DNA from: an uncultured Bacilli bacterium
GTDB lineage: Bacteria; Bacillota_I; Bacilli_A; RFN20; CAG-449
Assembly: GCA_947632435.1 (NCBI GenBank)
Contig: CANRPC010000006.1
Span: 4,923-68,922 of the forward strand
Direction: 5' to 3'
Length of the DNA stretch: 64,000 nt
Part shown: positions 10,154-62,524 of the stretch, piece after piece
Layout: every line of letters starts with the position of its first letter
Position numbering within the stretch: position 1 is the stretch's first letter
The notes under the pieces: generated by a model
Seen by the model: the letters and a program-made list of their open reading frames with translations, nothing else
Told to the model about the DNA's origin: nothing
The model's database searches: none
Program-made: the position numbers and the translations under genes

Positions 10154-10227
10154 TGGCAGGAGTGACAGGAATCGAACCCGCGTTAATGGTTTTGGAGACC
10201 ACTGTACTACCATTGTACGACACTCCT
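10154..10227 (-). tRNA. trnW: tRNA-Trp (anticodon CCA).
   Basis: Minus-strand sequence AGGAGTGTCGTACAATGGTAGTACAGTGGTCTCCAAAACCATTAACGCGGGTTCGATTCCTGTCACTCCTGCCA folds into a cloverleaf with anticodon loop CTCCAAA. The CCA end is encoded. Confidence 0.85.
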
Positions 10228-27289: not shown

Positions 27290-27303
27290 ATGGAGTGAAA
27301 TAT

Positions 27304-28701
27304 ATGCCTGAATTACCTGAAGTAGAAACTGTAAGAAAATATCTTTCAATCGGAATTAAAGGGAAAAAGATTGAAAAGGTAAATATTATTGACAAAAGAA
27401 TAACAAGTTTATCAAAACTTGATTTAAAATTATTAAATGGTCAAAAAATAATTGATATTGATAGAAAAGGTAAATATTTAATTTTTATTTTTGAAGATTA
27501 TATAATGCTATCACATTTACGTATGGAAGGAAAGTATTATTTATATCATGAAAATGAAGAAAATAGTAAATATGCTAGAGTTATTTTTAATCTCAATGAA
27601 AATTTGAAATTAATTTACGATGATGTTCGTCGTTTTGGAAAAATGCAACTTTTCAAAAAAGAAAATTTTGATATTCATATTGCTTTACCAAATCTTGGAA
27701 ATGAACCATTTGATTATGATAAGGAAACTTTTTTTAAAATTATCCATAAACAAAAAAAAGAAATTAAAACTTTATTACTAGATCAATCTATAATCGCAGG
27801 AATAGGAAATATCTATGCTGATGAAATTCTTTTTAAAGCAAAAATATCTCCATTTAAATGTGGTTTTGAATTATCAAAACAAGATACAGATAATATATTA
27901 TTTTACGCGATAGAAACTCTTAATGAAGCAATATTACTAGGTGGTTCAACAATTAGAAGTTATCATCCTTCTAGAGATATAAATGGTCGTTTTCAACAGC
28001 AACTTTTAGCATATGGACGAGAAAAAAAGCCTTGTCTTATTTGTAATCATAAAATGATTAAACGTTTTTTACATGGTCGAAGTCTAACATATTGCCCTAA
28101 TTGCCAACATGTAGGAAAAGTTGTAGCAATATATGGTAAAATTGCTTCTGGTAAATCTTCTATCTTAAAAATGTTTCAAAATGATAATTATCCATGCTTT
28201 TCAAGCGATGATGAAGTTGATAAATTATATAAAAACGATATTAATTTTACATTAAAATGTGTTAACTTGTTTCACGAAGAATGCTTAAATAGTAACAATA
28301 AAGTTTCTAAAGAATATGTAAAACAAGTAATTATACAAGATTCTCAAAAGAAGAAAGAATTAGAAGGAATAATTCATCCAATAATTCAAAAAAAGGCTAT
28401 TGACTTTATAAAAAAGAATATCGATAAAGAACTTATTATTTTAGAAATACCTTTATTATTTGAAGCAAAAATGGAATCAATCGCAGATTATATTGTTGGC
28501 GTTGATGTTTCTGACTATATGCAAATTCAAAATTTAAAAACAAGAAATTCAATTTCCATAACAAATGATCTTATTTTAAATAAAAATAATTCATTCAACA
28601 AAAATATTGCTAAATGTGATTTTGTAATTGAAAATAATTCTACATTAGAGGATTTAAAAAAGAAATATGAAGAATTAAAGAATTTTTTAATTAATGTTTA
28701 A
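27304..28701 (+). CDS. mutM-coaE: Fusion protein: formamidopyrimidine-DNA glycosylase (MutM/Fpg) joined to dephospho-CoA kinase (CoaE).
   Basis: The N-terminus PELPEVETVRKYL and the zinc finger CLICNHK..16 aa..CPNCQH complete a Fpg domain. A CoaE P-loop VVAIYGKIASGKSS follows in the same frame with no intervening stop. Confidence 0.75.
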   Translation: MPELPEVETVRKYLSIGIKGKKIEKVNIIDKRITSLSKLDLKLLNGQKIIDIDRKGKYLIFIFEDYIMLSHLRMEGKYYLYHENEENSKYARVIFNLNENLKLIYDDVRRFGKMQLFKKENFDIHIALPNLGNEPFDYDKETFFKIIHKQKKEIKTLLLDQSIIAGIGNIYADEILFKAKISPFKCGFELSKQDTDNILFYAIETLNEAILLGGSTIRSYHPSRDINGRFQQQLLAYGREKKPCLICNHKMIKRFLHGRSLTYCPNCQHVGKVVAIYGKIASGKSSILKMFQNDNYPCFSSDDEVDKLYKNDINFTLKCVNLFHEECLNSNNKVSKEYVKQVIIQDSQKKKELEGIIHPIIQKKAIDFIKKNIDKELIILEIPLLFEAKMESIADYIVGVDVSDYMQIQNLKTRNSISITNDLILNKNNSFNKNIAKCDFVIENNSTLEDLKKKYEELKNFLINV

Positions 28702-37898: not shown

Positions 37899-38573
37899 TT
37901 AGTTTTCCTCAATAAAAATTGTGTCATATACTAAAAAAGCAATATTTTTTGGATATTTAATAATTTCTTTTTTTTCATTATAAATTAATGTTCCCACATT
38001 TGTTTCCTTAATTATTTGTTTTGATAATCGCGTTGATTCTTGAATAAAATGTGTTTCATTATTATCGATATCTTTTAAAGAAAGTAATTTTCTTCGGGAC
38101 ATAAATAAAATCTCATTATAAATACAAGAAATTCCAAATTTATCACAATTAGAATTTTCATCTAATAAATTTTCATTTCCATGCGGTAAAATAACAATAT
38201 CGATACCATGATTTAAAAGAATTTTAGCTTCTTCTAAAGTATTAAAACTTTCAAATGGGAAAAAAACTAATTTAAATTTTTTAGGATGATTTTTAAAAAT
38301 CTCTACAAAAGCAAAATCTTCAAAAAAAATGCCATCACTATGCAAAAAAATTTCTTTATATTCGTTTAATTTTATTATTTCATCTTCAAGTAAAATACGA
38401 TCACAACGTAAATATACTTTTTTATTGATTTCTTTTAATTTGGAAATTAAATTTTCAAGTTCATCTTTTTTTATGACATATTGTGAAAATGATGAAAATT
38501 CTGTTTCCACTAAAAATGCATCAGCATCTTTTGCGAGATTAAAAAGATTTTTATATGCATATACTTTTTCCAT
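37899..38573 (-). CDS. Short U32-like TIM-barrel paralog, the partner of the downstream U32 gene.
   Basis: 224 aa. DADAFLVE and GIDIVILP resemble the U32 N-terminal barrel. Arranged as a pair like B. subtilis yrrN/yrrO. Confidence 0.4.
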   Translation of the reverse strand: MEKVYAYKNLFNLAKDADAFLVETEFSSFSQYVIKKDELENLISKLKEINKKVYLRCDRILLEDEIIKLNEYKEIFLHSDGIFFEDFAFVEIFKNHPKKFKLVFFPFESFNTLEEAKILLNHGIDIVILPHGNENLLDENSNCDKFGISCIYNEILFMSRRKLLSLKDIDNNETHFIQESTRLSKQIIKETNVGTLIYNEKKEIIKYPKNIAFLVYDTIFIEEN

Positions 38574-38607: not shown

Positions 38608-39246
38608 TTATTTACTTCCTTCTTTTGATTTATCTTCGCTTTTTTTATCGTCTTTTTTCTTTTTATTACCAATTGGTTTAACTAAAACCCCAATTGTGAA
38701 AAGCAAAATAGATATTATTAATAAAAGTGAAGCAAAAATCCAAATCATTACAATATCATTTATTAAATTCGCTGTGAAGCACCAAACAGCAAAAGTAACA
38801 AGTAAAATATCGACAACAAATGTTATTACTTTATCAAAATTTTTACTTTCTTTGTGTTTAAATGTTAAAACAATTAAATTTGTTAATCCATGTATATAAA
38901 CAACAATCCCTACGGTTCTTGATGGAGTAATTATACTATCCATAAAATGAATAAATTGATTTAAAATACATAATACTGCAAAAACAGATATAATTGTAAA
39001 TTCAACAACTGTAGGAACATAGATATTTTTATCTCTGTTTTTGCTCATTTTTGGTAACAAATAGCCTGCTAGATATAAGATTAAAAGTAATGTTATTATT
39101 AAGTAAATTCCATCTCTTCCCCAATTTTTCCAAAATACCCAAGATGGAGTGTTATTCCAAAGAGGTGCAATGAAAATACTTAGTATTAAAAAAATAACAG
39201 CAAAAATAAAATATAGAAAAAATAATTTTGTCTTCTTAAATTTCAT
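38608..39246 (-). CDS. Hypothetical membrane protein with 5-6 transmembrane segments and a Lys-rich C-terminus.
   Basis: 212 aa. Starts 13 bp downstream of the atpC stop. Confidence 0.45.
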   Translation of the reverse strand: MKFKKTKLFFLYFIFAVIFLILSIFIAPLWNNTPSWVFWKNWGRDGIYLIITLLLILYLAGYLLPKMSKNRDKNIYVPTVVEFTIISVFAVLCILNQFIHFMDSIITPSRTVGIVVYIHGLTNLIVLTFKHKESKNFDKVITFVVDILLVTFAVWCFTANLINDIVMIWIFASLLLIISILLFTIGVLVKPIGNKKKKDDKKSEDKSKEGSK

Positions 39247-47412: not shown

Positions 47413-47443
47413 AAAAAAAAACTGATGCTTTATTGCATCAGTT
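47413..47443 (-). terminator. Rho-independent terminator after the tRNA pair: hairpin AACTGATGC...GCATCAGTT followed by a T8 run on the minus strand.
   Basis: Read from the sequence. Confidence 0.55.
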
Positions 47444-47454
47444 ATAGTCATTAA

Positions 47455-47531
47455 TGGTGACCTATACGGGATTCGAACCCATGAGTGCATGCGTGAAAGG
47501 CATGTGAGTTAAGCCACTTCTCCAATAGGCC
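47455..47531 (-). tRNA. trnE: tRNA-Glu (anticodon UUC).
   Basis: Sense sequence GGCCTATTGG...CATGC-CTTTCAC-GCATG...GGTTCGAATCCCGTATAGGTCACCA. Anticodon loop CTTTCAC. Confidence 0.8.
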
Positions 47532-47535
47532 ATGA

Positions 47536-47610
47536 TGGCGCCTAGCATAGGGCTCGAACCTACAACCGATCGGTTAACAGCCGATTGCTCTGCCATTGAG
47601 CTAGCTAGGC
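47536..47610 (-). tRNA. trnN: tRNA-Asn (anticodon GUU).
   Basis: Sense sequence GCCTAGCTAGCTCAATGGCAGAGCAATCGG-CTGTTAA-CCGAT...GGTTCGAGCCCTATGCTAGGCGCCA. Confidence 0.8.
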
Positions 47611-48033: not shown

Positions 48034-49503
48034 TTAAAAAATGCGAGTTGCTTTTACAGCTAATTTCCATTTTTTATATTTATTTTTGCGTTCTTCTTTT
48101 GACATGTTAGGAACAAAAATTTGTTTTATTTGATGAAATTTAATTATTTCCTCTATTGAATGAAATTTTTTTAGATTTAACATGCATAAATAAAAAGCAC
48201 CAAGAGAAGTTGTTTCAAAAATTTTTCCTTTTTGTAATTTCATGTTTAATATATCACTTTGAAATTGCATCAAATAATTATTGTTTGATGCTCCTCCATC
48301 TACACGCAATGATTTAAATTTCAATTTAGTTTCTTTTTTAATTGTTTCAATTACATCTTTTGATTGAAAAGCAATAGATTCTAATGTTGCTTTAATAAGA
48401 GAATATTTCGATGAATTTCTTGTAAGATTAAATATTGCACCACGACAATTATTATCCCAATATGGTGTTCCTAAACCAACAAAAGCGGGAACAACATATA
48501 CTTCATCTTCAGCTTTATTAACAGCTTCTTCTGATTCAGCTGCATTTTTGATTAATTCTAATTTATCTCTAAGCCATTGTATACTTGCGCCACCTATTAA
48601 TACAGATCCTTCAAGTGCATATGTAACTTTACCATTTATACCATAAGCAATTGTCGTAAGTAATCCATTAGAAAATAATTTTGCTTTTTCACCTAAATTG
48701 GTTAAAATAAAACATCCAGTTCCATAAGTGTTTTTAATGTCACCTTCTTTAAAACAAGCTTGCCCGATTAAAGAAGACTGTTGATCACCAATCAAAGAAG
48801 ATATTAATACTTTATATTGTGATGATAAGATATTACTATAACCAAAATTTGATGCTGAATCACAAACCTCTGGTAACATTATAGATGGAATATTAAATAA
48901 TTTTAATAAATCTTCATCCCATTTTTTTTCAAAAATATTAAATAACAAAGTCCTTGAAGCATTTGTATAATCCGTTTTAAATGATTTACCATTTGTTAAA
49001 CGATATAATAAAAAAGTATCAACAGTTCCAAATAAAATTTCTCCCTTTTGCGCTCTTTCTTGACCATTTTCTATATGATCAAGTAAATAGCGAATTTTAG
49101 ATGCAGAAAAATATGGATTTAAAATTAATCCTGTTTTTTGAAAAATAAAATCTTTTTTATCTTCTAGTGATTCACAAATTGCTTGTGATTGCTTTGACTG
49201 CCAAACAATAGCTTTTCCTAATGGTTCACCATTTTTATCGAAAACAATCGTAGTTTCTCTTTGATTTGTGATTCCAATAGAAATAATTTGGTTAGGGGCA
49301 AGATTTTTTTTAACCATTATTTCAGAAATTGTATCATTTACTGAAAGAAATATTTCTAAGGCATCTTGTTCAACTGCTCCAGGAAATGGATAATAACATT
49401 TCACTTCTTTTTGTGAAGTAAAAATAATATTTCCTTTTAAATCAAAAAGTATAGCTCTAGTGGAAGTTGTTCCTTGATCTATAATTATAATATACTTTTC
49501 CAT
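48034..49503 (-). CDS. glpK: Glycerol kinase.
   Basis: N-terminus IIDQGTTSTRAILFD. FGGY kinase motifs. 489 aa. Confidence 0.9.
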   Translation of the reverse strand: MEKYIIIIDQGTTSTRAILFDLKGNIIFTSQKEVKCYYPFPGAVEQDALEIFLSVNDTISEIMVKKNLAPNQIISIGITNQRETTIVFDKNGEPLGKAIVWQSKQSQAICESLEDKKDFIFQKTGLILNPYFSASKIRYLLDHIENGQERAQKGEILFGTVDTFLLYRLTNGKSFKTDYTNASRTLLFNIFEKKWDEDLLKLFNIPSIMLPEVCDSASNFGYSNILSSQYKVLISSLIGDQQSSLIGQACFKEGDIKNTYGTGCFILTNLGEKAKLFSNGLLTTIAYGINGKVTYALEGSVLIGGASIQWLRDKLELIKNAAESEEAVNKAEDEVYVVPAFVGLGTPYWDNNCRGAIFNLTRNSSKYSLIKATLESIAFQSKDVIETIKKETKLKFKSLRVDGGASNNNYLMQFQSDILNMKLQKGKIFETTSLGAFYLCMLNLKKFHSIEEIIKFHQIKQIFVPNMSKEERKNKYKKWKLAVKATRIF

Positions 49504-49506
49504 ATT

Positions 49507-51054
49507 TTAACGTTTAGATTCTTCAACCATTATTTTAAGCCAGGAACTTAATTCTTTAGAAATTTCTTTTTTCAAGATACGGAATTGCCAATTGCCACTT
49601 TCTTTTCCTGGAGTATTCATACGAGTTTCTTTTGGTAATTTTAATAAGTCCTGCATTGTAAAAATACACACTTTGGCATTTGATCTAAATAAAGATCCTA
49701 TTAAAGTATCATAAATATCTTCTTCTTTTTCTAAATTTAAATAATCAAGCATCGCAGGAATTTGATCTTTATTTTCTAACAAGAAATTAGACAAAACATC
49801 ATTATCATGAGTACCAATATACGCTACACATTCTTCTAAATAATTATGTGGTAAAAAAGGATTTACCAATTTCATTTCTTTTATTTCTTTTGCAGTCATA
49901 TTCGCAATTTCATTATTTAATTTTAAATCCTTTTTTAAACATTCTTCATAATCACTAAAAGCAAATTGATAAACTTTTAATCCTGGAAATTTTGTTTCTT
50001 TTAAAAGTTTTTTTACATCATCTTCAATAATTCCTAAATCTTCTGCGATAATGTTTAAATTTTTAATTTTATTTTGCATTGTTTCAAAAAATAATAATCC
50101 AGGACCTTGTTTCCAAATACCTTTTTTGGCATTTTTTGCATTTGCTTTAATTTCATAATATGATGCAAATGCTCTAAAATGGTCAAGTCTAATATAATCA
50201 AACAATTTCGAAGCAAATTTCAATCTTTGCACCCACCATTTATAATGTCTTTTTTTTAGTTTATCCCAATCATAAATCGGATTCCCCCATAATTGACCAT
50301 TTTCAGAAAAATAATCAGGTGGTACTCCAGCAATTTTGGTTGGATAATGTTCGCGATTTACTTTAAACATATTAGCATTAGCCCAGACATCAACAGAATC
50401 TGAAGCAACATAAAAAGGCATATCACCAATTATTTTAACATTTTTCCTTTTAGCATATTTTTTTAACGATTTATATTGTCTAAATGCTTCATATTGAACA
50501 TAAATCCAAAATTTAAGTTCCTCGATATGTTCTTTTGCAAAATTAGTTAGGGCATTCTTTTTATGTAATTTTAGATCTCTAGGCCATAAAGAAAATGCCA
50601 CATCATTTTCTATTTTTTTTATCGTCATAAATAAAGCATAATCATATAACCATTTTTTATTTAATCGATAAAAAGAAGCAATTTTCTTTTCTTCCTTTTC
50701 ATATGCTTTAACTGATGCTTTTTTTAATATTGCAAAACGAGTTTGATATAAATAACCATAATCGACAAATCGCCCTTTTTTTGCTTTCAAATTAATTACA
50801 TCTTCTTTAGATATATATTCTCTTTTGATTAAATAGTCCAAATCAATAAAATATGGATTTAATGCATAAGAAGAAATACCTTGATAAGGTGAATCACCAT
50901 ATGAAGTAGGATTTAATGGTAATACTTGCCAATATTTTTGTTTAGAAGCATTTAAAAATCGAATAAATTTTCTTGCTTCTTTACCAAATGTTCCTATACC
51001 ATATTTGGATGGCAAAGATGAAATATGTAATAAAATTCCTGAACCTTTTTCCAT
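49507..51054 (-). CDS. malQ: 4-alpha-glucanotransferase (amylomaltase, GH77).
   Basis: N-terminus GILLHISSLPS.YGIGTFG. The motifs DSVDVWAN, LWGNP and IRLDHFRAF. Confidence 0.85.
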   Translation of the reverse strand: MEKGSGILLHISSLPSKYGIGTFGKEARKFIRFLNASKQKYWQVLPLNPTSYGDSPYQGISSYALNPYFIDLDYLIKREYISKEDVINLKAKKGRFVDYGYLYQTRFAILKKASVKAYEKEEKKIASFYRLNKKWLYDYALFMTIKKIENDVAFSLWPRDLKLHKKNALTNFAKEHIEELKFWIYVQYEAFRQYKSLKKYAKRKNVKIIGDMPFYVASDSVDVWANANMFKVNREHYPTKIAGVPPDYFSENGQLWGNPIYDWDKLKKRHYKWWVQRLKFASKLFDYIRLDHFRAFASYYEIKANAKNAKKGIWKQGPGLLFFETMQNKIKNLNIIAEDLGIIEDDVKKLLKETKFPGLKVYQFAFSDYEECLKKDLKLNNEIANMTAKEIKEMKLVNPFLPHNYLEECVAYIGTHDNDVLSNFLLENKDQIPAMLDYLNLEKEEDIYDTLIGSLFRSNAKVCIFTMQDLLKLPKETRMNTPGKESGNWQFRILKKEISKELSSWLKIMVEESKR

Positions 51055-51071
51055 AATACTCCTTTATTTTA

Positions 51072-51743
51072 TTATTTACTTAAAAAATTTAAAATGTCAT
51101 TTATAATTTCTTTAACATATGTTAAACCAAATAAATGTCCATATGTATAAGTTTTAATTTCTATGTCTTTTATATATTCTTTTAATAAATCAGCACTTTT
51201 TTTAAAAAATTTATCATCATTAGAGGAATACATTAAATAAGCTTTGTTAGAAAAATTATTGATTCTAGCATCTAATACAAAAGATGTATTATCATTAACC
51301 ATTTTTTTGAATTTAGCTTTTGTAAGTTGTTTTTTATTATTAACTGCTTCTTCATCTTCTTTAAAGCGTAATTTTGCACTTATACGAATTGGTGTTTTTA
51401 ATAATCCAAGATAACAACATGATAGCGATTCAAAAATAACTTTTTTAATTAATGTTGGTTCTTCTTGAATCATTTCTAAAGCAATTTGCGCTCCTAATCC
51501 GCGTCCAAAGACATAACAATTATCACTTCTATTTTTTATAAAATCACAAATGCTTTTAGCATTTTCTTTAATCGATGTATAATCATTTTCAAAATCATCA
51601 CCATGTCCAGATATAGAAACTAAATAAAGACAATAATTTTGAAAATATTCTAAATATTCATCCCATTCTTCAAAAGAAGAATTGCCTCCATGAATTAAAA
51701 CTAAAATTTTATTTTTTTCAGGATTTAAAATTTTAATCTTCAT
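51072..51743 (-). CDS. Alpha/beta hydrolase-fold protein.
   Basis: LVLIHGGNSS is present. The nucleophile elbow reads GRGLG, with Gly where a Ser would be expected, so it may be non-catalytic. Confidence 0.5.
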   Translation of the reverse strand: MKIKILNPEKNKILVLIHGGNSSFEEWDEYLEYFQNYCLYLVSISGHGDDFENDYTSIKENAKSICDFIKNRSDNCYVFGRGLGAQIALEMIQEEPTLIKKVIFESLSCCYLGLLKTPIRISAKLRFKEDEEAVNNKKQLTKAKFKKMVNDNTSFVLDARINNFSNKAYLMYSSNDDKFFKKSADLLKEYIKDIEIKTYTYGHLFGLTYVKEIINDILNFLSK

Positions 51744-51747
51744 AAAT

Positions 51748-52434
51748 TTAACACTTATCCTTCTTAAAATATTTTTTTAAAGACTGTTTTTCTTTATTGC
51801 TTACTTGTAAAGAATCATATATTTTTCTTAAAGTAAATTTTTTTAAATTTTTTGAATCATCTAATGTTTCTAAAAAGGCAATTATCCTTTTATGATCTTT
51901 TAAATACAAATTAGATAAAAGCCAAGCTTCAGCCATTAAAACATAATATTTTGCATCTTCATAAATAAATTTTAATATTTCTTCAATATATTTTTCTTTC
52001 CATGAACAAGCATTTAAAAAAGTATAGCAGGAGCGAGATAAAAATTCACTTTGACTATGATAATTTTTTTTAACATAATTTTTTAAAACCAAATAGTCAT
52101 TTTCATTAAATTTTAAAGATGAAGAAACCCCATCTATAATTGCCCAATTATCAACATTGAGAAAAGATTTTTCATAAAAGTCTAATTTTTCTTGTAGAGA
52201 TTTATTAGAATATGCTAACGCCACATTTAAAATAAATTCTATTTCATAAATTCCTTGACAATTTAATTGACTTAAATTAGCATCGTTAGCAATTTCTTGA
52301 GCTTTTTTTCTTAATAATGATGTTTTTACACCATAAAATTTTAAATTACTTTGAATAATTTTTTTATCAAATTCAGCCTTTTTATTATTTTGATTTTCTG
52401 TTATAAAAAATAAAACTTCTTGTAATAAAAGCAT
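51748..52434 (-). CDS. DNA alkylation repair protein (AlkC/AlkD HEAT-like family).
   Basis: FYGVKTSLLRKKAQEI, VDNWAIIDGV and YYVLMAEAWLLSNL match the family pattern. Confidence 0.55.
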   Translation of the reverse strand: MLLLQEVLFFITENQNNKKAEFDKKIIQSNLKFYGVKTSLLRKKAQEIANDANLSQLNCQGIYEIEFILNVALAYSNKSLQEKLDFYEKSFLNVDNWAIIDGVSSSLKFNENDYLVLKNYVKKNYHSQSEFLSRSCYTFLNACSWKEKYIEEILKFIYEDAKYYVLMAEAWLLSNLYLKDHKRIIAFLETLDDSKNLKKFTLRKIYDSLQVSNKEKQSLKKYFKKDKC

Positions 52435-52436
52435 AC

Positions 52437-53651
52437 TTACTCGCTCATAAATTTTTCGATATCCGCGATTTCTTTAATAATATTATCACTTAAACAAACG
52501 CAACCATTTTCAGTAATTAAAAGATCATCTTCAATACGTATACCAATTCCTAAAGAAGAGAAATATAATCCTGGTTCGTTAGAAATAACATTACCAACTT
52601 CTAGAATAGTATCTCGACCCATTGGATCATGAACATCTAAACCTAAATGATGTGATATACGATGAAAATAAACATCTTTTATTTCATCGTAATTATTTAT
52701 TAATTTTTCTTTTAAACAAGCATTTGCCAAAAATTCAACTGACTCTTCATGTAACTTTTTCATAGACATTGATGGTTTAGCAATTTGTCTAATGTATTTA
52801 TTACAGTCAAGAACAATTTGATAAATTTTTTTTTGCATTGGTGTAAATTTACCACTTATAGGATAAGTTCTTGTTATATCTGCATTATAATAATTAATTC
52901 TTGCTCCTAAATCCAATAAAATTAATGAATCTTTTTCTAAAGAAGCATTATTTTCATGATAATGTAACGTAGTTCCATTTTTAGCGTTACCACATATTGT
53001 TTGAAAAGCAGGAGTCGCGTGTGCTAAAGAAAAAATACGTTCTTCAAAATGAGCTTGTACTTCTCTTTCATTTTTAAATAACTTCATATTTTTCATAACT
53101 GATTGTAATGCAAGATTTGTTATTTCAATGGCATTTTTAATTTCTTTAATTTCTTCATCATCTTTTTTAGCTCTTAATTTAATTATATCATTATAAACAT
53201 CTTTAATTATAATATTAGCATTAAGTTCCAAAGCAATTTTTTGAAAAAATTTTCCATAATTTAATCCACCTAATAATTCATTTTCTTCTAAATCAAGAAA
53301 AACTTTTTTATTATTAAATACTTCTTTATAAAAATCTTTGTTATTGCTTGAAGCAATTTTTTCGATTTGCGATATTTTTTTTGCTTCTTCATGCGTATAA
53401 TAATAACCAATCCATCTTGCTAATTTTTCATCATTATCAAGCACATATAAAATTTCATTTCTTGTTTTCAAATCAACGACTAAATATGAATCATGTTGAT
53501 CAATACCTGTTAAATAATAGAAATTTCTATTTACAGAAAATGGATAATTATCATCTGCAGAACGTTTAATTTCAAATCCTGAACAAAGGAATAAAATTCC
53601 TTCATTACCTAATAAATCATATAATTTATTTCTACGAATTTTATAATTCAT
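52437..53651 (-). CDS. pepP: Xaa-Pro aminopeptidase (M24B family).
   Basis: DITRT, HHLGLDVHD and GIGIRIEDDLLIT metal-ligand motifs. Confidence 0.8.
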   Translation of the reverse strand: MNYKIRRNKLYDLLGNEGILFLCSGFEIKRSADDNYPFSVNRNFYYLTGIDQHDSYLVVDLKTRNEILYVLDNDEKLARWIGYYYTHEEAKKISQIEKIASSNNKDFYKEVFNNKKVFLDLEENELLGGLNYGKFFQKIALELNANIIIKDVYNDIIKLRAKKDDEEIKEIKNAIEITNLALQSVMKNMKLFKNEREVQAHFEERIFSLAHATPAFQTICGNAKNGTTLHYHENNASLEKDSLILLDLGARINYYNADITRTYPISGKFTPMQKKIYQIVLDCNKYIRQIAKPSMSMKKLHEESVEFLANACLKEKLINNYDEIKDVYFHRISHHLGLDVHDPMGRDTILEVGNVISNEPGLYFSSLGIGIRIEDDLLITENGCVCLSDNIIKEIADIEKFMSE

Positions 53652-54492
53652 TTCTTTTTTTCTCCTTTGGTTCTAAAGAAATTATACAATCAACAATTTT
53701 TTCAAATTCTGGAAGTACATATTCCTCGATTAGACCTTTATCAACAATTTTAGCCAAAGTAGGATCAAATGGTAATGAAGCAATTTTTTCAACATTAAAT
53801 TGTTCATACATTGAATCATTTTTATTTTCACCAAAGACATATATTTTCTTTTTGCAATCTGGGCATAAAACATAAGACATATTTTCTACGACACCTAGCA
53901 CTTTTATATTCATCATTTTAGCCATTTTTAAAGCTTTTTTAACAATCATAGAAACCAAATCTTGAGGTGTTGTAACAATAATAATGCCATCTAAAGGAAT
54001 AGATTGAAATGTTGTCAAACTAATATCGGATGTTCCTGGTGGCATATCAATAACTAAAACATCTTTATCTTCCCAACGAACGTCTGTATAAAATTGACTT
54101 AATAAAGAATTAATTAAACTGCCTCGATATAAAATTGGATCATCATCATTTTCTAATAGCATATTAGAGGAAATAATATCGATGTTAAGAATTTCACTAG
54201 TAGCAGGATATATATATGTTCCATCTCCACTTGCCTTTTGCTTAATATTAAAAGCATGAGGAATAGATGCTCCAGTAATATCAGCATCTAAAATTCCAAC
54301 TGAAAGTCCACGTCGAGAAAGTGCACAGGCAATTAAAGATGAAACAAGTGATTTTCCAACTCCACCTTTTCCAGATACGACACCAATTATTTTTTTGATA
54401 TTTGATTTTGAATTTTGTGCTAAAACCATATCTTCTTGATTTCTTGAAGCACATTCTTCACCGCAACTTGAACAATCATGATTACATGACAT
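53641..54492 (-). CDS. mrp: Mrp/NBP35/ApbC family iron-sulfur cluster carrier ATPase.
   Basis: GKGGVGKS P-loop. N-terminal Cys-rich MSCNHDCSSCGEEC. CPDC motif. Confidence 0.8.
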   Translation of the reverse strand: MSCNHDCSSCGEECASRNQEDMVLAQNSKSNIKKIIGVVSGKGGVGKSLVSSLIACALSRRGLSVGILDADITGASIPHAFNIKQKASGDGTYIYPATSEILNIDIISSNMLLENDDDPILYRGSLINSLLSQFYTDVRWEDKDVLVIDMPPGTSDISLTTFQSIPLDGIIIVTTPQDLVSMIVKKALKMAKMMNIKVLGVVENMSYVLCPDCKKKIYVFGENKNDSMYEQFNVEKIASLPFDPTLAKIVDKGLIEEYVLPEFEKIVDCIISLEPKEKKRNEL

Positions 54493-54508: not shown

Positions 54509-55111
54509 TTAATTTATTTTTATAAATATATCTTCTTTTCCAATAAATTTTACTTCAATTTCTGCTTTAAATTTATTTATAAGTAAATCAATATTTATAT
54601 TTTCTTTAGCTACTTCTAATAAAATATTTTCTGCAAAAATTTTATTAATTATCAAATAATTTTCTTTTTCTAACATATAGAACATAGTATCAGAATATTT
54701 GTAAGGAACAATAATTTGAATTTTATCTAATTGTTTTCTTTCATAATATTGAACTTTATCTAGAACTTTTAAGCAAGATTCCACATAAGCTCTTAATAAA
54801 TTACTTGCACCAAGTTTTATACCACCAAAATATCTGATTACTATTAATAAAATATGATTAAGTTTTTTACTTTGTAAAACATTTAAAATTGGTCTTCCCG
54901 CAGTATTAATAGGTTCTTTATCATCAGAAAATTTAATAAAATCATCAATAATACATGCATAACAATAATGACTTGCTTTAGGATAACTCTTCTTTATTAA
55001 AACCAAATTTTTTTCTAGTTGTAGCTTATCATCAATTGGTAAACATACCGCGATAAATTCCGATTTTTTTATTTCAATTTTATTTTTATACTCTTCTTTA
55101 ATATAAAACAT
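54509..55111 (-). CDS. yigZ: IMPACT/YigZ family protein (UPF0029).
   Basis: 200 aa. N-terminal pattern KKSEFIAVC. Overlaps the giant gene's stop by 4 bp. Confidence 0.6.
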   Translation of the reverse strand: MFYIKEEYKNKIEIKKSEFIAVCLPIDDKLQLEKNLVLIKKSYPKASHYCYACIIDDFIKFSDDKEPINTAGRPILNVLQSKKLNHILLIVIRYFGGIKLGASNLLRAYVESCLKVLDKVQYYERKQLDKIQIIVPYKYSDTMFYMLEKENYLIINKIFAENILLEVAKENINIDLLINKFKAEIEVKFIGKEDIFIKIN

Positions 55112-55113
55112 AA

Positions 55114-58100
55114 TTACATGAATAAAGTTGGATGCTGTAATAAAATTTGTGTAAGTTTAGGAAGCCAAACATTTTCAACATGATATTCAATTGAATAATT
55201 TGTCCCATTTTCGTTTACTGTAAATAGCCCTTTAATGTCTACTTGATTTTCTATAAGTTTTTGACCAAAACTAGACTCATAAATAGCATTTTCAATATAA
55301 TTATTATTCAAAAGTTCACATGCAAAGCGAGCATTAATTCCATCCTCTAATAAAATATGTTGATTATCTCTAGGTGCAGAATTTTCTGATTTTCCTGGTC
55401 CTAAATTACGATATAATTCAGGTTTTAGAAGATTTTGTGCATCGCTAAAGTTATTTAATGTAGTAAAGTCATTATGTAAATTCAATATAGTTTTAATTGC
55501 TTCTTTTTCATAATCATTAAAGCAATTAAATACATATTTATATGCATATATATCAAGATAATTAATATCAAGATCATGAGCTTTCTCATTAAATAAATTA
55601 AACATAACTTCAGAAATTAAATAACCTCGAATATATTTATCTTCATTTATCATATCTTGTTCAGCAATAATATTATTTGCTTCATCAGCTTCATTTAAAT
55701 AATTATATGCATTTCCATTATATTGATAAACTAAACTATATAAATCAACAATATTATCAATTTCTTCTCTAGATAAATCACCAGTCATAGTAATATTAAT
55801 GTTTGAAGATACTTTAGTTAAAGCATCATCTAAAAATTTTCCTTCATATGCCCAAGTATTTTCCTCTGCATTTAATTTTTCTTGACGTGGTTCAATTTTT
55901 TCTAAACAAAGATATTTGATTGTATCACGTTTTTTCTTAGCAACTTGATTAATATCACCATCATATTGCTCATCATATCCCTGAATTTTATTTGGTGCAT
56001 CGGCGATACAAGAAATATATTGAGAAATATTTGAGGAGTCCATTGTTTTATATAGGAAATCGTAGAACATTGGTTCAATAATTTTTGAATCTTTTAGTGC
56101 TGGTAAAATTTTTTCGATTTTAACTAAATTACTTGAACTAAAATCATAATTTTCAAAATCAATTATATGATTATTATTATCAACATCACTATAAGATAAA
56201 GCTGTTTTTAATTTTGTAATATTATTAATTTCATCGCTCCAAACAGAAATTTTATCAGCAAAATATATTTTATCTTTATCAAGATTATAATTTATTTGTG
56301 TAGCTATTTCATTTTCATCTATACGATAATAGTCAATTTTTACATGATTTAATAAAGTTCTTGAAATATAAATTGTTCCATCGTGAAGCAAATATGATTT
56401 ATTAATATAATTCATAATTGTCGCTAAGGAATTATCATCAATTGTTGAATAATCTCCTCCATTTAAAGTTCCATTATTCATTACTTCAGCAAGTTCATTA
56501 CAATTAACAATATCATTCAAAGAAGTTATTTCTTCTTTCCAAGTTCTAAATGTTTGATCTGCTTGAAGAACGCCATTATTTGAAAATCCAGATTCATCAA
56601 TAAATTGTTCATAATTAGACATTTCTAATACTTTATGTAACATATAATTTGATGCATTATTATATCCTTTATGTATTTCCGCATCAAAAGAAATATCAGC
56701 CAATTTTAACTTATTCATAGCAATAAGAATTAATCTTTCAAATATTGTTGTCTTTCCTATATTTGATGATTCATTTCTTAATTTAGTATTATGGAATATT
56801 ATTGAATCATGTAAATTTGTAAGTAATGGTTCAAGGAAAAGTTTAATATCATCAAAACTTACATTTTCAACTTGGAATGAATCGAATTCATTTATAACAT
56901 TAAATATATGCTCAATTTCAATATAACGTAATTCACTTTCTAATTCTCTTTTAGTTAATGTTGAATTATCAATTGTTTTATCCGTTACAATATTATTTAA
57001 ATAATAATTAAAATTATTTCCTTCATAATTTAATTCATTTTCAAAAGCGTCAGTATAAATAAGATTTTCATTATTTGCAAACAAATCATTTAATGTACTT
57101 TCACTTGAATTAAAGGTTTGATTAATTGATTTTGCAATAATATTGCCAAATATAGTTCTTAAGAAAATTATATCATTAAGGCCTGCAGTTTCTTGTTCGG
57201 TTTCTTTATTACCAATTAAAAATTCTTTAATTGCATCAATAGAATTTTCATTAGTTAAATCAATGTTTAAATTACCATTTTCATCTTGTAAAGAAGACAT
57301 TTGGAAAATAATATCACAAAATTTATTTATTTCTGTATCCCATTTTGAACCGCGTGATAAATTTGCACTTGTACCATCTAAATATAGATAATTTTTGTCA
57401 TCTAAAGCAAATGAGAAATCTTCTTTTATTTTTGCTTCATCATCATTATTTATATAATCTTTCAATGGTTCTTTTATTAAATCATATAATATTAAACCTA
57501 AACGATCATATTCTTTTCCATTTTGATTTATAGGTGATTCTACCATATGTAGCTTAGCAAATGAACTTAATAAAGTATTTAAAGATTCTTTGTTATTTTC
57601 ATCTGAAATTACCTCAGATAAATTGAATCCATTATCTGTTTGTAATTGTTTTAAAGATTCTATAATATTTGCGATATTTTTACTTTCTTCTTTCCACATT
57701 TGTTTTTGTTTTTCTATTGATTCTTCTTTATCAATAGCGTCAAATTCTAAATAAGAAGCATCTATTTGTGATTCTTCTAAAATTGGTTTAAATTGCTTTT
57801 CTAAAACACTACTTAAACATGGCCTGAAAAAATCAGATTCACTTATAGCATCAATGAGATTAGAGAATGAATCCCCATTAATATCATTTAAAGTAATATT
57901 TTGTTGTTCAAACAAAGAATTGAGTGAATCATCATTTTCAATTGCAGCATATATATTACAAATTTTATCAAATTCGACACTTATATCTTCACAACTATCA
58001 TAAGCTTCTTCTGACAAAGTAATTCCAACATTATTTAATGAAGAATCATTAAAAAGATTTAATATGATTTGTCGTAAAACATTATTTTCTTTAGCAACAA

Positions 58101-60378
58101 TATTTTTATTTGGATTAATAATTTCACAATCAACAAGTTCAGAAAAAATAATTCTTAAATCACTAGAGTTTATACCACTTTCAAATATATTTTCTCCTTC
58201 ACTTAAATTAAATATTGGTGTTGCATATTGAAAAGCATCCAATAATTTAACAAGTTCATTACCTAAATTAGTATCACTAGAAAATTTGTCAAAATTTAAA
58301 TCATTATAATCGACACCAATTTTATCCCAATCAACACTTAATTTCTCTTTGACAATTGGAACAAGAATTGAAGGAATAACTATAGAATCACCCATTTGAC
58401 TTATTGCATCTTTTAAAGTAGATAAATGTTTTTCATTTTCTAAATCAACTTGGAAGTTTGCATTGATAACTAATTCACCATTTTGTCCTTTTAACATTAT
58501 TGGAAAATCGTTTTTATTATAAATTTTAGCAATAAAACGTAGCATTGAATTAATTTCAATTTCCCACGATTCTTTTGTTTCAGGAATAGTGTTTAATTTA
58601 TTTTGAATTTCCACGAAAGTTTTATCATCAAATAATGATCCTTTTAACATTTTTAAAGCAATATTCAATAGTTTATTCATAGAATTAACAACAAAAGGAA
58701 TATCGAATAAACCTCTATTTCCTCCTTTGCCATTTCCAAAGAATAAAGACAATGTTGAAAGATTTTCTTCATTATTTGCAAAAACTATTTTTTCTTCATA
58801 AAAAATATCAAGTAAAATTCCTGGATTGATATCACCAAGCTTTAAAATATCTAAATCTTGAATTTCTTGTGAATTATTTATAGAAGATACACCTAAATTA
58901 TTAGGTAAAGTCATTGCTTCTTTATATAAACCATTAAAATTAAATAAAACATCTACTAAGACATCAAGTAATTCAATAGTGTCAAATTCTTCTTGACGAT
59001 ATCCTTCTGCAGTATCAGGAAAAATTGCAACAAAATCATTAACAGTTACACCATTTTGTATTTCATCTTTTTCTTTATCAAGTTCATTACTAACTAATGA
59101 AGCAAGAATTGGAGGTAAAACAACATCAAGTAAAGTCTTTTTTCCACTATTTTTTATTGCTTCTTGCTTGATTTTAAAATTATTTAATCCTTTTTTTATT
59201 GAATTATAATTTTCATTTGACAAAAAATAAGGTTTATTATCTAAAATTGATTCCGAGACATATCCGTTTTCATTTAAAATTCTAAATAGCTCAACAAAAG
59301 AAGATAAATCCTCACCAAAATTAATATACGAAATTTCCTCTGATAATTTATTAGCTTCTTCTTTAGAAAGTATCATTGAATTTTCATCAACCATATTTAA
59401 AGCAATTTTAGATGCGATAGGCACAACTTCATTTACTAAAAACGCATTATTTAAAATTTTTTGAGTAATTAAATCAAGTGTTTTATCAGATAATAATGCC
59501 GCGACTAATGATCCTTGTGAAACATCTTCAGCAATTGATAAAGTTGAACACGCTGCAGCAAAAACATCTCCAACTACTTCAGCAAAATTAACTTTAGTAT
59601 TAGAATTATTCACATTAACAGTATAGTAATTTATATTATTTCCTCTTCCAGTAAGAACAGCAAAAGTATAATGCAATAATGAATTATTATATCCATTAAA
59701 AATAGGATACATTATTTTCCAATAATCATTTGCTTTATTTTCATCATATTTATAACCATCTTCTAACGCATCATTATAATTTTTTAGCATAACTTCTGTT
59801 ACTGAAAATAATGGAGTTAAAAATGCTGCGCTAACTAATAAAGTTTTTGTGCCATTAACAAATAAACCCCCGATTCTTAATTTATGTTTACGCATAACTT
59901 TTTTAAATATAGGTCGAACAACTAAAATATATAAAATAAAAGTTAAAATAGGTGAAATAATTAGGCAAAGAAGTAAATTAATTATTAAAACAAAAAATGA
60001 TAATATGCTTAAAGCTAATGCATCAACTGCAGATTTCGAAGCAGAAATATCGTATGCTCTTAAAATATCGCTAACAATATCACCAATTTTTTGAGTTAAA
60101 AAAACTTCATTTCCATTAATCATTAAACTCTTGTTTAAAGGTAACCAATTTATAATTTGTGTTATATTAAAATTATAAAATGCTTTTGTGAAATTAATAT
60201 TATTTAGATAAACAATTAAAAGTAATATTATCCAAACAACAAGCTTTAACAATGATTTTATTAATCCTTTTTTCAAACCTGTAAGGCAAGAAATAAGGCA
60301 CATTATCATAATTGCAAAAATAACAATATTACATATCAAGGAAATGTTACCTGATGATAAACTCATTAATAAACTCAT
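55114..60378 (-). CDS. Giant (1754 aa) membrane-anchored hypothetical protein. It has 4-5 N-terminal transmembrane helices and a roughly 1500-aa N/D/E-rich soluble domain.
   Basis: A single uninterrupted ORF. RBS AAAGGAAGAGAG before ATG 60378. No recognisable catalytic motifs. Confidence 0.65.
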   Translation of the reverse strand: MSLLMSLSSGNISLICNIVIFAIMIMCLISCLTGLKKGLIKSLLKLVVWIILLLIVYLNNINFTKAFYNFNITQIINWLPLNKSLMINGNEVFLTQKIGDIVSDILRAYDISASKSAVDALALSILSFFVLIINLLLCLIISPILTFILYILVVRPIFKKVMRKHKLRIGGLFVNGTKTLLVSAAFLTPLFSVTEVMLKNYNDALEDGYKYDENKANDYWKIMYPIFNGYNNSLLHYTFAVLTGRGNNINYYTVNVNNSNTKVNFAEVVGDVFAAACSTLSIAEDVSQGSLVAALLSDKTLDLITQKILNNAFLVNEVVPIASKIALNMVDENSMILSKEEANKLSEEISYINFGEDLSSFVELFRILNENGYVSESILDNKPYFLSNENYNSIKKGLNNFKIKQEAIKNSGKKTLLDVVLPPILASLVSNELDKEKDEIQNGVTVNDFVAIFPDTAEGYRQEEFDTIELLDVLVDVLFNFNGLYKEAMTLPNNLGVSSINNSQEIQDLDILKLGDINPGILLDIFYEEKIVFANNEENLSTLSLFFGNGKGGNRGLFDIPFVVNSMNKLLNIALKMLKGSLFDDKTFVEIQNKLNTIPETKESWEIEINSMLRFIAKIYNKNDFPIMLKGQNGELVINANFQVDLENEKHLSTLKDAISQMGDSIVIPSILVPIVKEKLSVDWDKIGVDYNDLNFDKFSSDTNLGNELVKLLDAFQYATPIFNLSEGENIFESGINSSDLRIIFSELVDCEIINPNKNIVAKENNVLRQIILNLFNDSSLNNVGITLSEEAYDSCEDISVEFDKICNIYAAIENDDSLNSLFEQQNITLNDINGDSFSNLIDAISESDFFRPCLSSVLEKQFKPILEESQIDASYLEFDAIDKEESIEKQKQMWKEESKNIANIIESLKQLQTDNGFNLSEVISDENNKESLNTLLSSFAKLHMVESPINQNGKEYDRLGLILYDLIKEPLKDYINNDDEAKIKEDFSFALDDKNYLYLDGTSANLSRGSKWDTEINKFCDIIFQMSSLQDENGNLNIDLTNENSIDAIKEFLIGNKETEQETAGLNDIIFLRTIFGNIIAKSINQTFNSSESTLNDLFANNENLIYTDAFENELNYEGNNFNYYLNNIVTDKTIDNSTLTKRELESELRYIEIEHIFNVINEFDSFQVENVSFDDIKLFLEPLLTNLHDSIIFHNTKLRNESSNIGKTTIFERLILIAMNKLKLADISFDAEIHKGYNNASNYMLHKVLEMSNYEQFIDESGFSNNGVLQADQTFRTWKEEITSLNDIVNCNELAEVMNNGTLNGGDYSTIDDNSLATIMNYINKSYLLHDGTIYISRTLLNHVKIDYYRIDENEIATQINYNLDKDKIYFADKISVWSDEINNITKLKTALSYSDVDNNNHIIDFENYDFSSSNLVKIEKILPALKDSKIIEPMFYDFLYKTMDSSNISQYISCIADAPNKIQGYDEQYDGDINQVAKKKRDTIKYLCLEKIEPRQEKLNAEENTWAYEGKFLDDALTKVSSNINITMTGDLSREEIDNIVDLYSLVYQYNGNAYNYLNEADEANNIIAEQDMINEDKYIRGYLISEVMFNLFNEKAHDLDINYLDIYAYKYVFNCFNDYEKEAIKTILNLHNDFTTLNNFSDAQNLLKPELYRNLGPGKSENSAPRDNQHILLEDGINARFACELLNNNYIENAIYESSFGQKLIENQVDIKGLFTVNENGTNYSIEYHVENVWLPKLTQILLQHPTLFM

Positions 60379-60543
60379 AAATCTCTCTTCCTTTTTAGTT
60401 TTTAAATAAATTTAAAAATAAATTTCAAAACTATTATAATAGATTGTTGCTTTTTTTTGTACAAAAAGTTTTTTTTATTTAAAAAAAGAATTAAGCAACA
60501 TATAATTAAATATAATAAACAAATTAAATTTGAGGAAAATAAA

Positions 60544-61374
60544 ATGCAAAATGAAAAAATATCTATTTTGAAAAAAATAAAAAATAAAATAATCTCGTTT
60601 GAGGAAAATAAAACAATTAAAAATTTTAAATTACCATTTCTAATAAGTCTTTTTTTACTTGGATTTGTTGGTTTAAGTTTAATTGCTCTAATTGTACAAA
60701 TTTTATTAGAAGCACCTATAAATGGAACTTTTTTAAATAGTGAATTTTTAAATACATTAAATGAAGAAGAAATCAAAAATTCAATAATTAATTTTTTCAA
60801 TAGTGTATCTTTGTTTATGTATTATTTTATAACTTTTTTTATTTTTATAATTTTGATAATAGTAAATAAAGAAAGTCTAAGTTATATTAAATCTTGTATT
60901 CATAAAAATGCTTTTATTGAAGGCATTGCTATTGCAATCATGATGTTCTGTTGTTCTATTGCTTATAGTATGTTTATTCAAATGATAAATCCATCAACAA
61001 CAAGCAATAACAATCAACAAGGTATTGAAAATGCATTTTATGCCGCGCCATTATTATCTTTTTTTAGTATTGTTTTGTTTGCTCCAGTGTGTGAAGAATT
61101 AACCTATAGACTAGGTTTATTTAGTTTAATAGCAAAAAAATCAAAAATTTTAGCTTATATTGTAACAATTTTATTTTTTACACTAATTCATTTTGATTTT
61201 TCAGTAAAAACACCAAAAGAATGGACAATTGAATTGATCAATATGCCTGCATATATGATAGGAGCTATATTTTTATGTTTTGCATATGCAAGAAAAGGAA
61301 ATATTTTAACATCAATTACTGCACATGCTTGCTACAATGGCATAGAATTTTTATTGATGTTAATTAATTTATGA
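60544..61374 (+). CDS. CPBP (CAAX protease/Abi) family intramembrane metalloprotease.
   Basis: FAPVCEELTYRLGLF (EExxxR), FTLIHF and HACYNG motifs. The start was refined to ATG 60544, which has a GAGGAAAA RBS. The ORF track starts at 60457. Confidence 0.7.
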   Translation: MQNEKISILKKIKNKIISFEENKTIKNFKLPFLISLFLLGFVGLSLIALIVQILLEAPINGTFLNSEFLNTLNEEEIKNSIINFFNSVSLFMYYFITFFIFIILIIVNKESLSYIKSCIHKNAFIEGIAIAIMMFCCSIAYSMFIQMINPSTTSNNNQQGIENAFYAAPLLSFFSIVLFAPVCEELTYRLGLFSLIAKKSKILAYIVTILFFTLIHFDFSVKTPKEWTIELINMPAYMIGAIFLCFAYARKGNILTSITAHACYNGIEFLLMLINL

Positions 61375-62168
61375 CATATATACAAAAATTAGATTCATTT
61401 CATTTGAAAATCATAGCAATGCTTACAATGTTAATTGATCACATTGGTGCATTTTTGTTTCCTAATATAATCATTTTAAGAATTATCGGAAGAATATCAT
61501 TTATTTTATATGCATTTTTACTTGTAGAGGCAATGCGATATAGTAAACATAAAATCCGTTATATAATTATATTATTTTCATTTGAAATTGTTTTATCTTT
61601 AATTGAATATTTATTCACTTTTGAATACAATTCAACAATTTTTTCTTTACTTGCTTTATCTTCATTGACCATTTATTTATTAGATTCACCCAAAAAAACT
61701 ATAAAATTGTTAGCAATATTTCCAATTTTATATGTAATATTTGCCACATTTAATTTTACATTTTTTAAAGTAGAATATGGTATTTATGGATTAATAGTCA
61801 TTTTAGGCTTTTATTTTATTAGAAAAAGTTTAGAAATGTATCTATTTTCTAACGACATTAAATATGAAGATTGCGATGATAATCTTAAAAAAATGTTTCA
61901 TAATTCTTTTTTAATTGGAGCATCTTTAGTAGTTTTAACTACTTCTATGTTATCATTTCTTTTAAGTAATTATTTAAAAGATTTATTTCCTAATAATTAT
62001 TTTAATTATCAAGGACAAAGTCAGGCAATATTAGCAATTCCATTTATTCTTCTTTATAGTGGAAAACGCGGATTTGATAATAAATATTTCCGATTATTTA
62101 CATATAGTTTTTATCCCATACATATTTTAATATTGTACATTTTGGCATATTTTTTTACTTTTAGATAA
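61371..62168 (+). CDS. TraX-family membrane protein.
   Basis: N-terminus LKIIAMLTMLIDHIGAFLFPN is typical of TraX. Overlaps the CPBP gene by 4 bp. Confidence 0.6.
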   Translation: MTYIQKLDSFHLKIIAMLTMLIDHIGAFLFPNIIILRIIGRISFILYAFLLVEAMRYSKHKIRYIIILFSFEIVLSLIEYLFTFEYNSTIFSLLALSSLTIYLLDSPKKTIKLLAIFPILYVIFATFNFTFFKVEYGIYGLIVILGFYFIRKSLEMYLFSNDIKYEDCDDNLKKMFHNSFLIGASLVVLTTSMLSFLLSNYLKDLFPNNYFNYQGQSQAILAIPFILLYSGKRGFDNKYFRLFTYSFYPIHILILYILAYFFTFR

Positions 62169-62209: not shown

Positions 62210-62524
62210 ATGAAACATATTGAATCAAAAGAACAGTTTGTAAAAGAAATTCAAACTGGAAATGTAATTGTAGATTTTTTTGCAAATTGGTGTGGTCCAT
62301 GTCGTATGCTTGCACCTGTTTTAGAAGAATTAGAAGAAAAATATGGATATAAAGTTATAAAAGTAAATGTTGATGAACAAATTGAAATAGCAAGTGAGTA
62401 TTTTGTATCGTCTATTCCTTTACTAGTTTTTTATAAAGATGGAAAAAAAGTCGGTGAAAATTTAGGATATTTAGCATATCCCCAATTAGAAAAAAAATTA
62501 AAAAATGTATTCGAAAATAGCTAG
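62210..62524 (+). CDS. trxA: Thioredoxin.
   Basis: WCGPC active site. 104 aa. RBS AGAGGAGGAAA. Confidence 0.85.
   Translation: MKHIESKEQFVKEIQTGNVIVDFFANWCGPCRMLAPVLEELEEKYGYKVIKVNVDEQIEIASEYFVSSIPLLVFYKDGKKVGENLGYLAYPQLEKKLKNVFENS

Follow-up and report, generated by a model that had tools for sequence, protein, structure and literature searches.

What does a gene of 1,754 codons encode when it matches no described protein family and heads a run of housekeeping genes in an uncultured member of the Bacilli? We addressed this question for a 64,000-nucleotide stretch of contig CANRPC010000006.1 (GenBank assembly GCA_947632435.1, positions 4,923 to 68,922 of the forward strand; GTDB lineage Bacilli_A, RFN20, CAG-449), hereafter referred to as the window, which has a GC content of ∼25% throughout. 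The gene, which we call the giant gene, lies on the minus strand at 55114-60378. The answer toward which we lean, while placing it somewhat short of an even chance, is that the giant gene encodes an exported stalk or scaffold of the cell envelope, built of helical modules and held by a CvpA-like membrane anchor, and that it is a core gene of uncultured small-genome Bacilli.

The giant gene, its modules, and its family

The features of the giant gene and of the protein it encodes are as follows.

55114-60378, minus strand: giant open reading frame (ORF), ATG start, 1754 codons plus stop, no internal stop
60383-60394, minus strand: Shine-Dalgarno-like sequence AAAGGAAGAGAG, 4 nt 5' of the giant-gene ATG, read directly
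59767-60378, minus strand: residues 1-204, four-helix membrane anchor, weakly CvpA-like (AlphaFold model, charge counts, weak Colicin_V matches)
58588-59766, minus strand: residues 205-597, membrane-proximal all-helical region with a weak first module at 354-430 (model, pLDDT mostly 75-93)
56026-58587, minus strand: residues 598-1451, a series of diverged helical modules that each begin with a W-x-x-E-[IL] helix (motif list, hhalign, model)
55117-56025, minus strand: residues 1452-1754, C-terminal helical region (alignment, conservation profile, model)

The giant gene is genuine and not an assembly artifact, because an identical protein (100%) is encoded without interruption and with the same neighbors on an independent ENA assembly contig (L008) and because relatives of similar length align with it from end to end. 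Interruption on resequencing, the outcome that the initial annotation had named as fatal to its proposal, is therefore not what the second assembly shows. Since stop codons make up ∼9% of random codons at ∼25% GC, the chance of a 1754-codon open frame is negligible (estimated at ∼e^-160). The description of this locus as a single 5.3-kb ORF encoding a membrane-anchored giant protein with N-terminal transmembrane (TM) helices and a composition rich in N, D, E, and K is accurate, with residue counts of 11.5% N, 7.7% E, 7.1% D, and 6.7% K. Searches of all window ORFs with hidden Markov models (HMMs) of the family recovered no second copy of the giant gene within the 64 kb.

We modeled the protein with AlphaFold2 in two segments using 12-sequence alignments, obtaining confident predictions with a pLDDT of 82 and pTM of 0.73 for residues 1-600 and a pLDDT of 86 and pTM of 0.65 for residues 601-1754. 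Past four TM helices, the models show ∼1,550 residues that are almost purely helical, with a few short hairpins. Segment-wise modeling and a search for repeats had been suggested at the outset, and the repeats that emerged are old: a W-x-x-E-[IL] helix occurs six times, at W605, W895, W1013, W1280, W1380, and W1509, and self-comparison of the family profile with hhalign relates ∼100-residue segments to one another with up to 96% probability. Seeded profile searches delimit robust modules at residues 598-700, 792-890, 1005-1112, and 1272-1374 and weaker ones at 354-430, 699-790, 1152-1195, and 1373-1451, the module being a unit of ∼90-130 aa and 4-5 helices. These repeats are detected by profile comparison only; BLASTP self-comparison of the window protein found none. 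Longer homologs carry plain duplications of these modules (E values down to 1e-29), with tandem copies of a ∼92-residue period in P0005 and, in P0004, a ∼222-residue double module present three times at 31-44% identity, and it is through such gain of repeat modules that length varies among relatives, a variation that the initial annotation had proposed to look for. Outside the main array, the membrane-proximal region has invariant residues at Y230, S233, P320, G548, and L557-D559, and the C-terminal region, which is conserved in the closest relatives and rich in invariant aromatics but less conserved across the family, has invariant columns at Y1551, Y1553, R1584, S1589, E1590, N1621, and E1624. 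As judged from sequence comparison and models, the giant protein consists of a membrane anchor followed by a variable-length array of old, diverged helical modules.

Searches against known families returned little. Scans of the whole giant protein against Pfam (E ≤ 0.01) and NCBIfam found no domain, scans with PADLOC and PHROG found no match, and a phmmer search of PDB sequences with the giant protein, together with searches using two family profiles, found no relative; a Pfam scan of 22 distant members gave three unrelated single matches and no relevant family. Foldseek comparison of both models to the PDB yielded only nonsignificant alpha-solenoid and miscellaneous matches, and comparison of the C-terminal model to BFVD yielded no viral structural neighbor. 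The initial annotation had called the large domain devoid of known motifs, which is nearly right, in that no catalytic or adhesin domain is recognizable in the Pfam, NCBIfam, PDB, PADLOC, and PHROG searches, but the N-terminal hairpin is weakly CvpA-like and the large domain is built of diverged helical modules. Three candidate identities were rejected along the way. An SMC-like or ABC-transporter-associated protein, which had been raised as a possible known family, is contradicted by the lack of any such Pfam or NCBIfam domain (no Walker-type ATPase head, no SMC_N or ABC profile match) and of any PDB sequence relative. A sortase-anchored adhesin is disfavored by the hydropathy profile of the window protein, which has no hydrophobic segment past residue ∼200, and by the rarity of an LPXTG motif in the last 60 residues (1 of 155 family members). 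Finally, a phage protein is at odds with the PHROG and BFVD results.

The family is larger than a quick search suggests. A word-indexed homolog search recovered 12 relatives of 1,691-2,208 aa, all free of Pfam domains, and its repetition with the 12-sequence profile added no further members, while an exhaustive HMM search, made with a profile of residues 601-1754 on clusters at 50% identity, recovered at least 141 cluster representatives at E ≤ 0.001 (73 at E ≤ 1e-30). Nearly all representatives are 1,200-2,800 aa long and are matched from about residue 550-700 onward; a search started from a distant member added proteins of up to 3,033 aa. Relatives counted as full length span 1,400-3,000 aa. 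Every relative that bears a name is a "hypothetical protein [Bacilli bacterium]." A scan of genome collections matched two rabbit-gut metagenome-assembled genomes (MAGs) labeled "uncultured Bacilli bacterium," and one family member is encoded on a 1.63-Mb contig. This distribution is in keeping with the uncultured orders of small-genome Bacilli, among them RF39, RFN20, and ML615J-28. RF39-like Bacilli are common in the gut, have no cultured representative, and are of uncertain envelope type, and for Bacilli of the RF39/RFN20/ML615J-28 type a mixed or thin wall status is predicted (PMC10868615).

The giant protein diverges more rapidly than the products of neighboring genes, with 46% identity compared to 70-78% for Mrp, PepP, and MalQ in one comparison and 24% compared to 51-61% for the same three proteins in a second. 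Conservation over 126 members is highest in the membrane domain, especially at residues 150-200, followed by residues 650-900, and the C-terminal third is the most variable. One short member, P0147 (1402 aa), is preceded by a 255-aa ORF on the same strand that overlaps its start (locus L013, 2-769 and 711-4919); this locus looks like a split or frameshifted giant gene, and the next gene, encoding 165 aa, is yigZ-like.

Membrane anchor and predicted location of the large domain

The initial annotation had counted four to five TM helices, and both numbers have an origin in the data: hydropathy gives five peaks within residues 14-198, whereas the AlphaFold model resolves four membrane helices (9-37, 39-58, 112-164, and 168-204), which we adopt. 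The loops at 34-41 and 153-172 are strongly basic. When N-terminal fragments of 11 close and 30 distant family members were scanned separately against Pfam, the only family to recur was Colicin_V (CvpA, PF02674), matched by 14 of the 41 N termini, always below the gathering score. These comprised 7 of the 11 close members (best E value, 4.5e-5) and 7 of the 30 distant ones (best E value, 1.2e-4). The N terminus of the window protein scores 15.8 bits (E value, 0.014), short of the gathering score of 29.3 bits, and the matches are confined to positions 4-38 of the 144 in the profile, that is, to TM1, a G-x-x-[KR]-G turn, and TM2. Alignment of a 134-sequence N-terminal profile with Escherichia coli CvpA (b2313) in hhalign covers 35 columns at residues 21-55 (P = 0.0012; probability, 20%). 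We therefore use the label "CvpA-like" in a weak sense, as a lead that comes from recurrence and topology and not as proven membership.

Loop charges offer a way to orient the anchor. In all 12 homologs in which we counted them, the charge is +2 to +3 in the TM1-TM2 loop, which has no acidic residue, and +5 to +8 in the TM3-TM4 loop, which has one acidic residue at most. The N terminus, the 55- to 62-residue loop between TM2 and TM3, and the residues that follow TM4 are neutral or acidic. Because loops 1 and 3 are basic and there are four helices, N-out/C-out would be the sole arrangement that fits the positive-inside rule, and the basic TM3-TM4 loop followed by TM4 resembles an uncleaved signal-anchor ahead of the large domain. 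The composition of the large domain points the same way, with medians over 155 members of 15.6% D+E, 7.2% K+R, and a pI of 4.3, the same in genomes of 25% and 60% GC. For comparison, the K+R content of 16 other window proteins, which we treat as a cytoplasmic set, is 10.5-16.9%. For E. coli CvpA itself, four membrane passes and a periplasmic C terminus of variable length are predicted, and the C terminus has been proposed to contact periplasmic partners or to sense stimuli (bioRxiv 10.1101/2020.09.25.314492). Taken together, the charge pattern, the signal-anchor-like TM4, the predicted topology of CvpA, and the acidic, Lys/Arg-poor composition suggest that the giant domain is most likely extracytoplasmic.

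These considerations can be combined into a proposed mechanism. The four-helix CvpA-like domain would anchor the giant protein in the membrane, and the basic loop at 153-172 together with TM4 would act as an uncleaved signal-anchor that sends the ∼1,550 residues behind it across the membrane. What is exported would be an acidic, Lys/Arg-poor, all-alpha chain of ∼8-10 diverged modules of 90-130 residues each. On the outside of the membrane this chain would form a long stalk or solenoid, and tandem duplication of modules would tune its length between species. Its role would most likely be structural or organizing, as a spacer, coat, or scaffold where the wall is thin or absent; alternatively, it might serve as the sensing arm of a CvpA-type envelope-homeostasis protein, and an enzymatic role seems less likely.

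A conserved gene block around the giant gene

The genes surrounding the giant gene in the window are listed below.

54509-55111, minus strand: yigZ (IMPACT_N), 2 nt after the giant-gene stop
53641-54492, minus strand: mrp (NUBPL-type ParA)
52437-53651, minus strand: pepP (M24)
51748-52434, minus strand: alkD-like gene
51072-51743, minus strand: alpha/beta hydrolase gene
49507-51054, minus strand: malQ
48034-49503, minus strand: glpK
47420-47610, minus strand: tRNA-Asn and tRNA-Glu, directly 3' of glpK, then a hairpin (47420-47443)
60457 or 60544 to 61374, plus strand: Rce1-like CPBP protease, divergent from the giant gene
61371-62168, plus strand: TraX, divergent side
62210-62524, plus strand: thioredoxin, divergent side

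Domain matches agree with the names first given to the genes from yigZ through glpK, and the giant gene does head the run, as the first of nine tightly packed genes; the successive gaps from the giant gene through glpK are 2, 16, -11, 2, 4, 17, and 3 nt. Two details of the initial annotation need correction. The giant-gene stop was said to overlap the start of yigZ, but the junction here reads TAA-TT-ATG, a 2-nt spacer, and it is in several relatives that the two genes overlap, by 1-17 nt. Mrp was called translation associated, but its Pfam family (PF10609) comprises ATPases of the Fe-S-cluster-carrier type. The hairpin at 47420-47443 is the only terminator-like hairpin in the region, and the two tRNA genes may be cotranscribed with the nine-gene run; a promoter scan was uninformative in DNA this rich in AT (114 sites compared to 110 expected).

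The link between the giant gene and yigZ, which the initial annotation had noted in this single genome, is real and conserved across loci. Wherever the flanking sequence was long enough (L001, L003-L006, L008-L012, L016, and L017), we found the same layout with small variations: thioredoxin, TraX, and the Rce1-like CPBP protease on one side, transcribed away from the giant gene, and yigZ, sometimes mrp, and the M24 Xaa-Pro peptidase following it on the other. The gene yigZ directly follows the giant gene in L003, L004, L005, L007, L008, L009, L010, L012, L016, and L017, with its start often overlapping the giant-gene stop, and the Rce1-like protease and TraX lie divergently upstream in L003-L006, L008-L012, L016, and L017, in genomes of 25-60% GC. 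Variations include L005, where no match to thioredoxin was found upstream and only the other two genes are present; L006, where a polysaccharide deacetylase (11030-11698) is inserted between the giant gene and yigZ; and L011, the locus of P0053, where yigZ is absent and mrp (14224-14979) directly follows the giant gene. Even relatives of 59-60% GC keep the block, although their PepP and thioredoxin share no more than 36-41% identity with those of the window (36-38% for PepP). Conservation of the block across so deep a divergence speaks for a core gene passed on vertically and perhaps also for a functional link.

Part of this block is older than the giant gene. In E. coli K-12 (L015, 4031161-4033106), yigZ shares one base with pepQ, the gene for an M24 Xaa-Pro dipeptidase, in a locus that has no giant gene, so the link between yigZ and the M24 peptidase predates the giant gene and is independent of it. 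The arrangement points to an old functional partnership between IMPACT-family YigZ and proline-specific peptidases, ahead of which the giant gene, as judged from gene order, is a lineage-specific addition. On the divergent side, we can only speculate that the Rce1-like protease, TraX, and thioredoxin might process or modify the giant protein.

Several other features of the window were recorded in passing. Two tandem large serine recombinases with Resolvase and Recombinase domains (6495-9852, plus strand; 582 and 544 aa, overlapping by 26 nt) adjoin a tRNA-Trp(CCA) gene (10154-10227, minus strand), and both GC and AT skew flip sign around them relative to both flanks, which may mark the edge of an integrated element. 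A 468-aa ORF (27295-28701, plus strand) combines MutM (formamidopyrimidine-DNA glycosylase) and CoaE (dephospho-CoA kinase) domains and represents a gene fusion or else a pair of neighboring genes read in one frame. Beside the F1Fo ATP synthase operon lie a 770-aa ORF (34230-36542, minus strand) and two ORFs of ∼220 aa (37899-38573 and 38608-39246, minus strand), none of which has a Pfam family at E ≤ 1e-5.

Competing readings and known systems

Several observations weigh against an exported stalk or scaffold. The case for an outside location is built on charge bias and analogy, most alpha-solenoids of large size belong to the cytoplasm, and the best fold resemblance of the models, itself nonsignificant, is to karyopherins and exportins (Foldseek E value, 0.014; TM-score, ∼0.1). 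The CvpA match is limited to the first hairpin and stays under the Pfam threshold (15.8 compared to 29.3 bits), the giant protein bears no Pfam domain of any kind and family members bear next to no sortase motif (1 of 155), and the gene is tightly linked, often with overlapping codons, to genes for the cytoplasmic proteins YigZ, Mrp, and PepP. Much of this could be accommodated by an N-in/C-in protein, a cytoplasmic solenoid tethered to the membrane that organizes division, shape, or a YigZ/Mrp/PepP complex; the models are solenoid-like, their best PDB neighbors, nonsignificant as they are, are cytoplasmic or nuclear HEAT solenoids, the tight coupling with yigZ and pepP is conserved, and the protein lacks a signal peptide as well as, in all but that one member, a sortase motif. 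We nevertheless judge a cytoplasmic scaffold unlikely. The distribution of loop charges is the opposite of what it needs in 12 of 12 homologs, the K+R content of the domain is about half that of the cytoplasmic window proteins at a pI of ∼4.3, and anchors of the CvpA type are predicted to be C-out, while the argument from coupling is weakened by the yigZ-M24 pair that does without a giant gene in E. coli and by the lack of yigZ beside P0053.

If the large domain is exported, the question becomes what it does there. An adhesin that binds host mucus, dietary particles, or other microbes in the manner of staphylococcal Ebh/Embp would suit a giant, probably surface-located protein that evolves faster than its neighbors and varies in module number, and Embp offers a precedent, being ∼1 MDa of repeats that each form two alpha-helical bundles (PMC7587433). 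The relatives also come from gut metagenomes, the rabbit MAGs among them. Adhesins are usually accessory and variable, however, whereas the giant gene occupies one fixed housekeeping context across very deep divergence and is single copy in the 64-kb window; its conservation peaks in the membrane domain and proximal modules instead of at the distal tip, and the Pfam scans of the window protein and 22 distant members found no FIVAR, GA, Ig-like, or lectin domain, leaving this role doubtful in our estimation. The conservation of the membrane domain, which is the highest family-wide and especially so at residues 150-200, might instead indicate that the CvpA-like domain is the functional core of an envelope sensor or channel, stress-responsive or mechanosensitive-like, to which the giant domain serves as tether or sensor arm. 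Genetic evidence ties CvpA to the extracytoplasmic stress response, and its variable periplasmic C terminus is the part proposed to bind partners or sense stimuli (bioRxiv 10.1101/2020.09.25.314492), but the match to CvpA is partial and below threshold, CvpA itself has no established mechanism, and 1,550 residues would be a large investment for a sensor arm; we consider this reading quite improbable. A polymorphic toxin, a role that the initial annotation had offered, or a defense or mobile-element protein has only large size and missing annotation in its favor and is effectively refuted, with next to no probability left to it: the gene is single copy and always followed by yigZ, mrp, or the deacetylase in a fixed chromosomal context, no toxin-immunity pair accompanies it, the C terminus aligns among close relatives with no swapped tip, and the PADLOC, PHROG, and viral structure comparisons all came back empty.

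The exported envelope stalk or scaffold thus remains the reading that we prefer, tentatively, and it can be extended, in a form that we regard as a long shot. The giant protein might be a lineage-defining envelope organizer of RF39-like small-genome Bacilli, an exported, CvpA-anchored "exoskeleton" or spacer whose module number would set its length and, with it, the architecture of the envelope in cells whose peptidoglycan is thin or missing; processing or modification of this protein would fall to the CPBP protease, TraX, and thioredoxin, and its expression would be tied to the YigZ-PepP pair. If true, this would represent a new kind of bacterial cell-surface architecture and provide the first functional handle on CvpA-type domains. 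More broadly, a gene that is conserved across genomes of 25-60% GC in a fixed block and yet matches no described family is a strong candidate for a major unstudied surface component of RF39-like gut Bacilli. The family and its six-gene block also provide an easy genomic marker for the clade, and for surface labeling, enrichment, or cryo-electron tomography the predicted ectodomain is an obvious choice of target.

Giant modular membrane and surface proteins are, as such, an already known kind, and comparison with the nearest examples helps to place this one. HEAT/ARM solenoids such as exportin-5, Kap121, and Nup192 share long all-alpha repeats with the giant protein and are its top Foldseek neighbors, but the superposition is not significant (E value of at least 0.014; TM-score, ∼0.1), the module of the giant protein has 90-130 residues and 4-5 helices compared to a helix pair of ∼40 residues, and those proteins are cytoplasmic or nuclear. 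Ebh/Embp of staphylococci is likewise very large, all-helical, and modular, with a variable number of modules and a proposed extension from the surface (PMC7587433). The giant protein differs in having no FIVAR or GA match in Pfam and no sequence relationship to Ebh/Embp, in its N-terminal four-TM anchor and far more diverged modules, and in being encoded by a core, syntenic gene instead of a lineage-variable one.

MarP of Mycobacterium tuberculosis (Rv3671c) resembles the giant protein in architecture, with four N-terminal TM helices, which we take to be classified as a CvpA domain, followed by a C-terminal domain. The passenger in MarP is a serine protease of ∼200 residues, whereas that of the giant protein is a nonenzymatic-looking helical array with no catalytic motif. 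The substrate of the MarP C-terminal domain belongs to the envelope: it is the peptidoglycan hydrolase RipA (PMC12183614). The giant protein belongs to neither the Embp nor the MarP family; its own family is previously undescribed, and the weak CvpA-like hairpin is its sole tie to known biology. Compared with CvpA (PF02674), it matches profile positions 4-38 of 144 only, below the gathering score, has a loop of ∼60 residues inserted between TM2 and TM3, and carries a C-terminal segment of ∼1,550 residues where that of E. coli CvpA (162 aa in total) has tens. The two nonetheless appear to share a four-helix membrane domain, a G-x-x-[KR]-G turn that joins TM1 to TM2, a predicted N-out/C-out topology, and a length-variable C terminus predicted to be extracytoplasmic, and the giant protein would be a natural example of a CvpA-type anchor with a large passenger, one that could help to explain what CvpA domains do.

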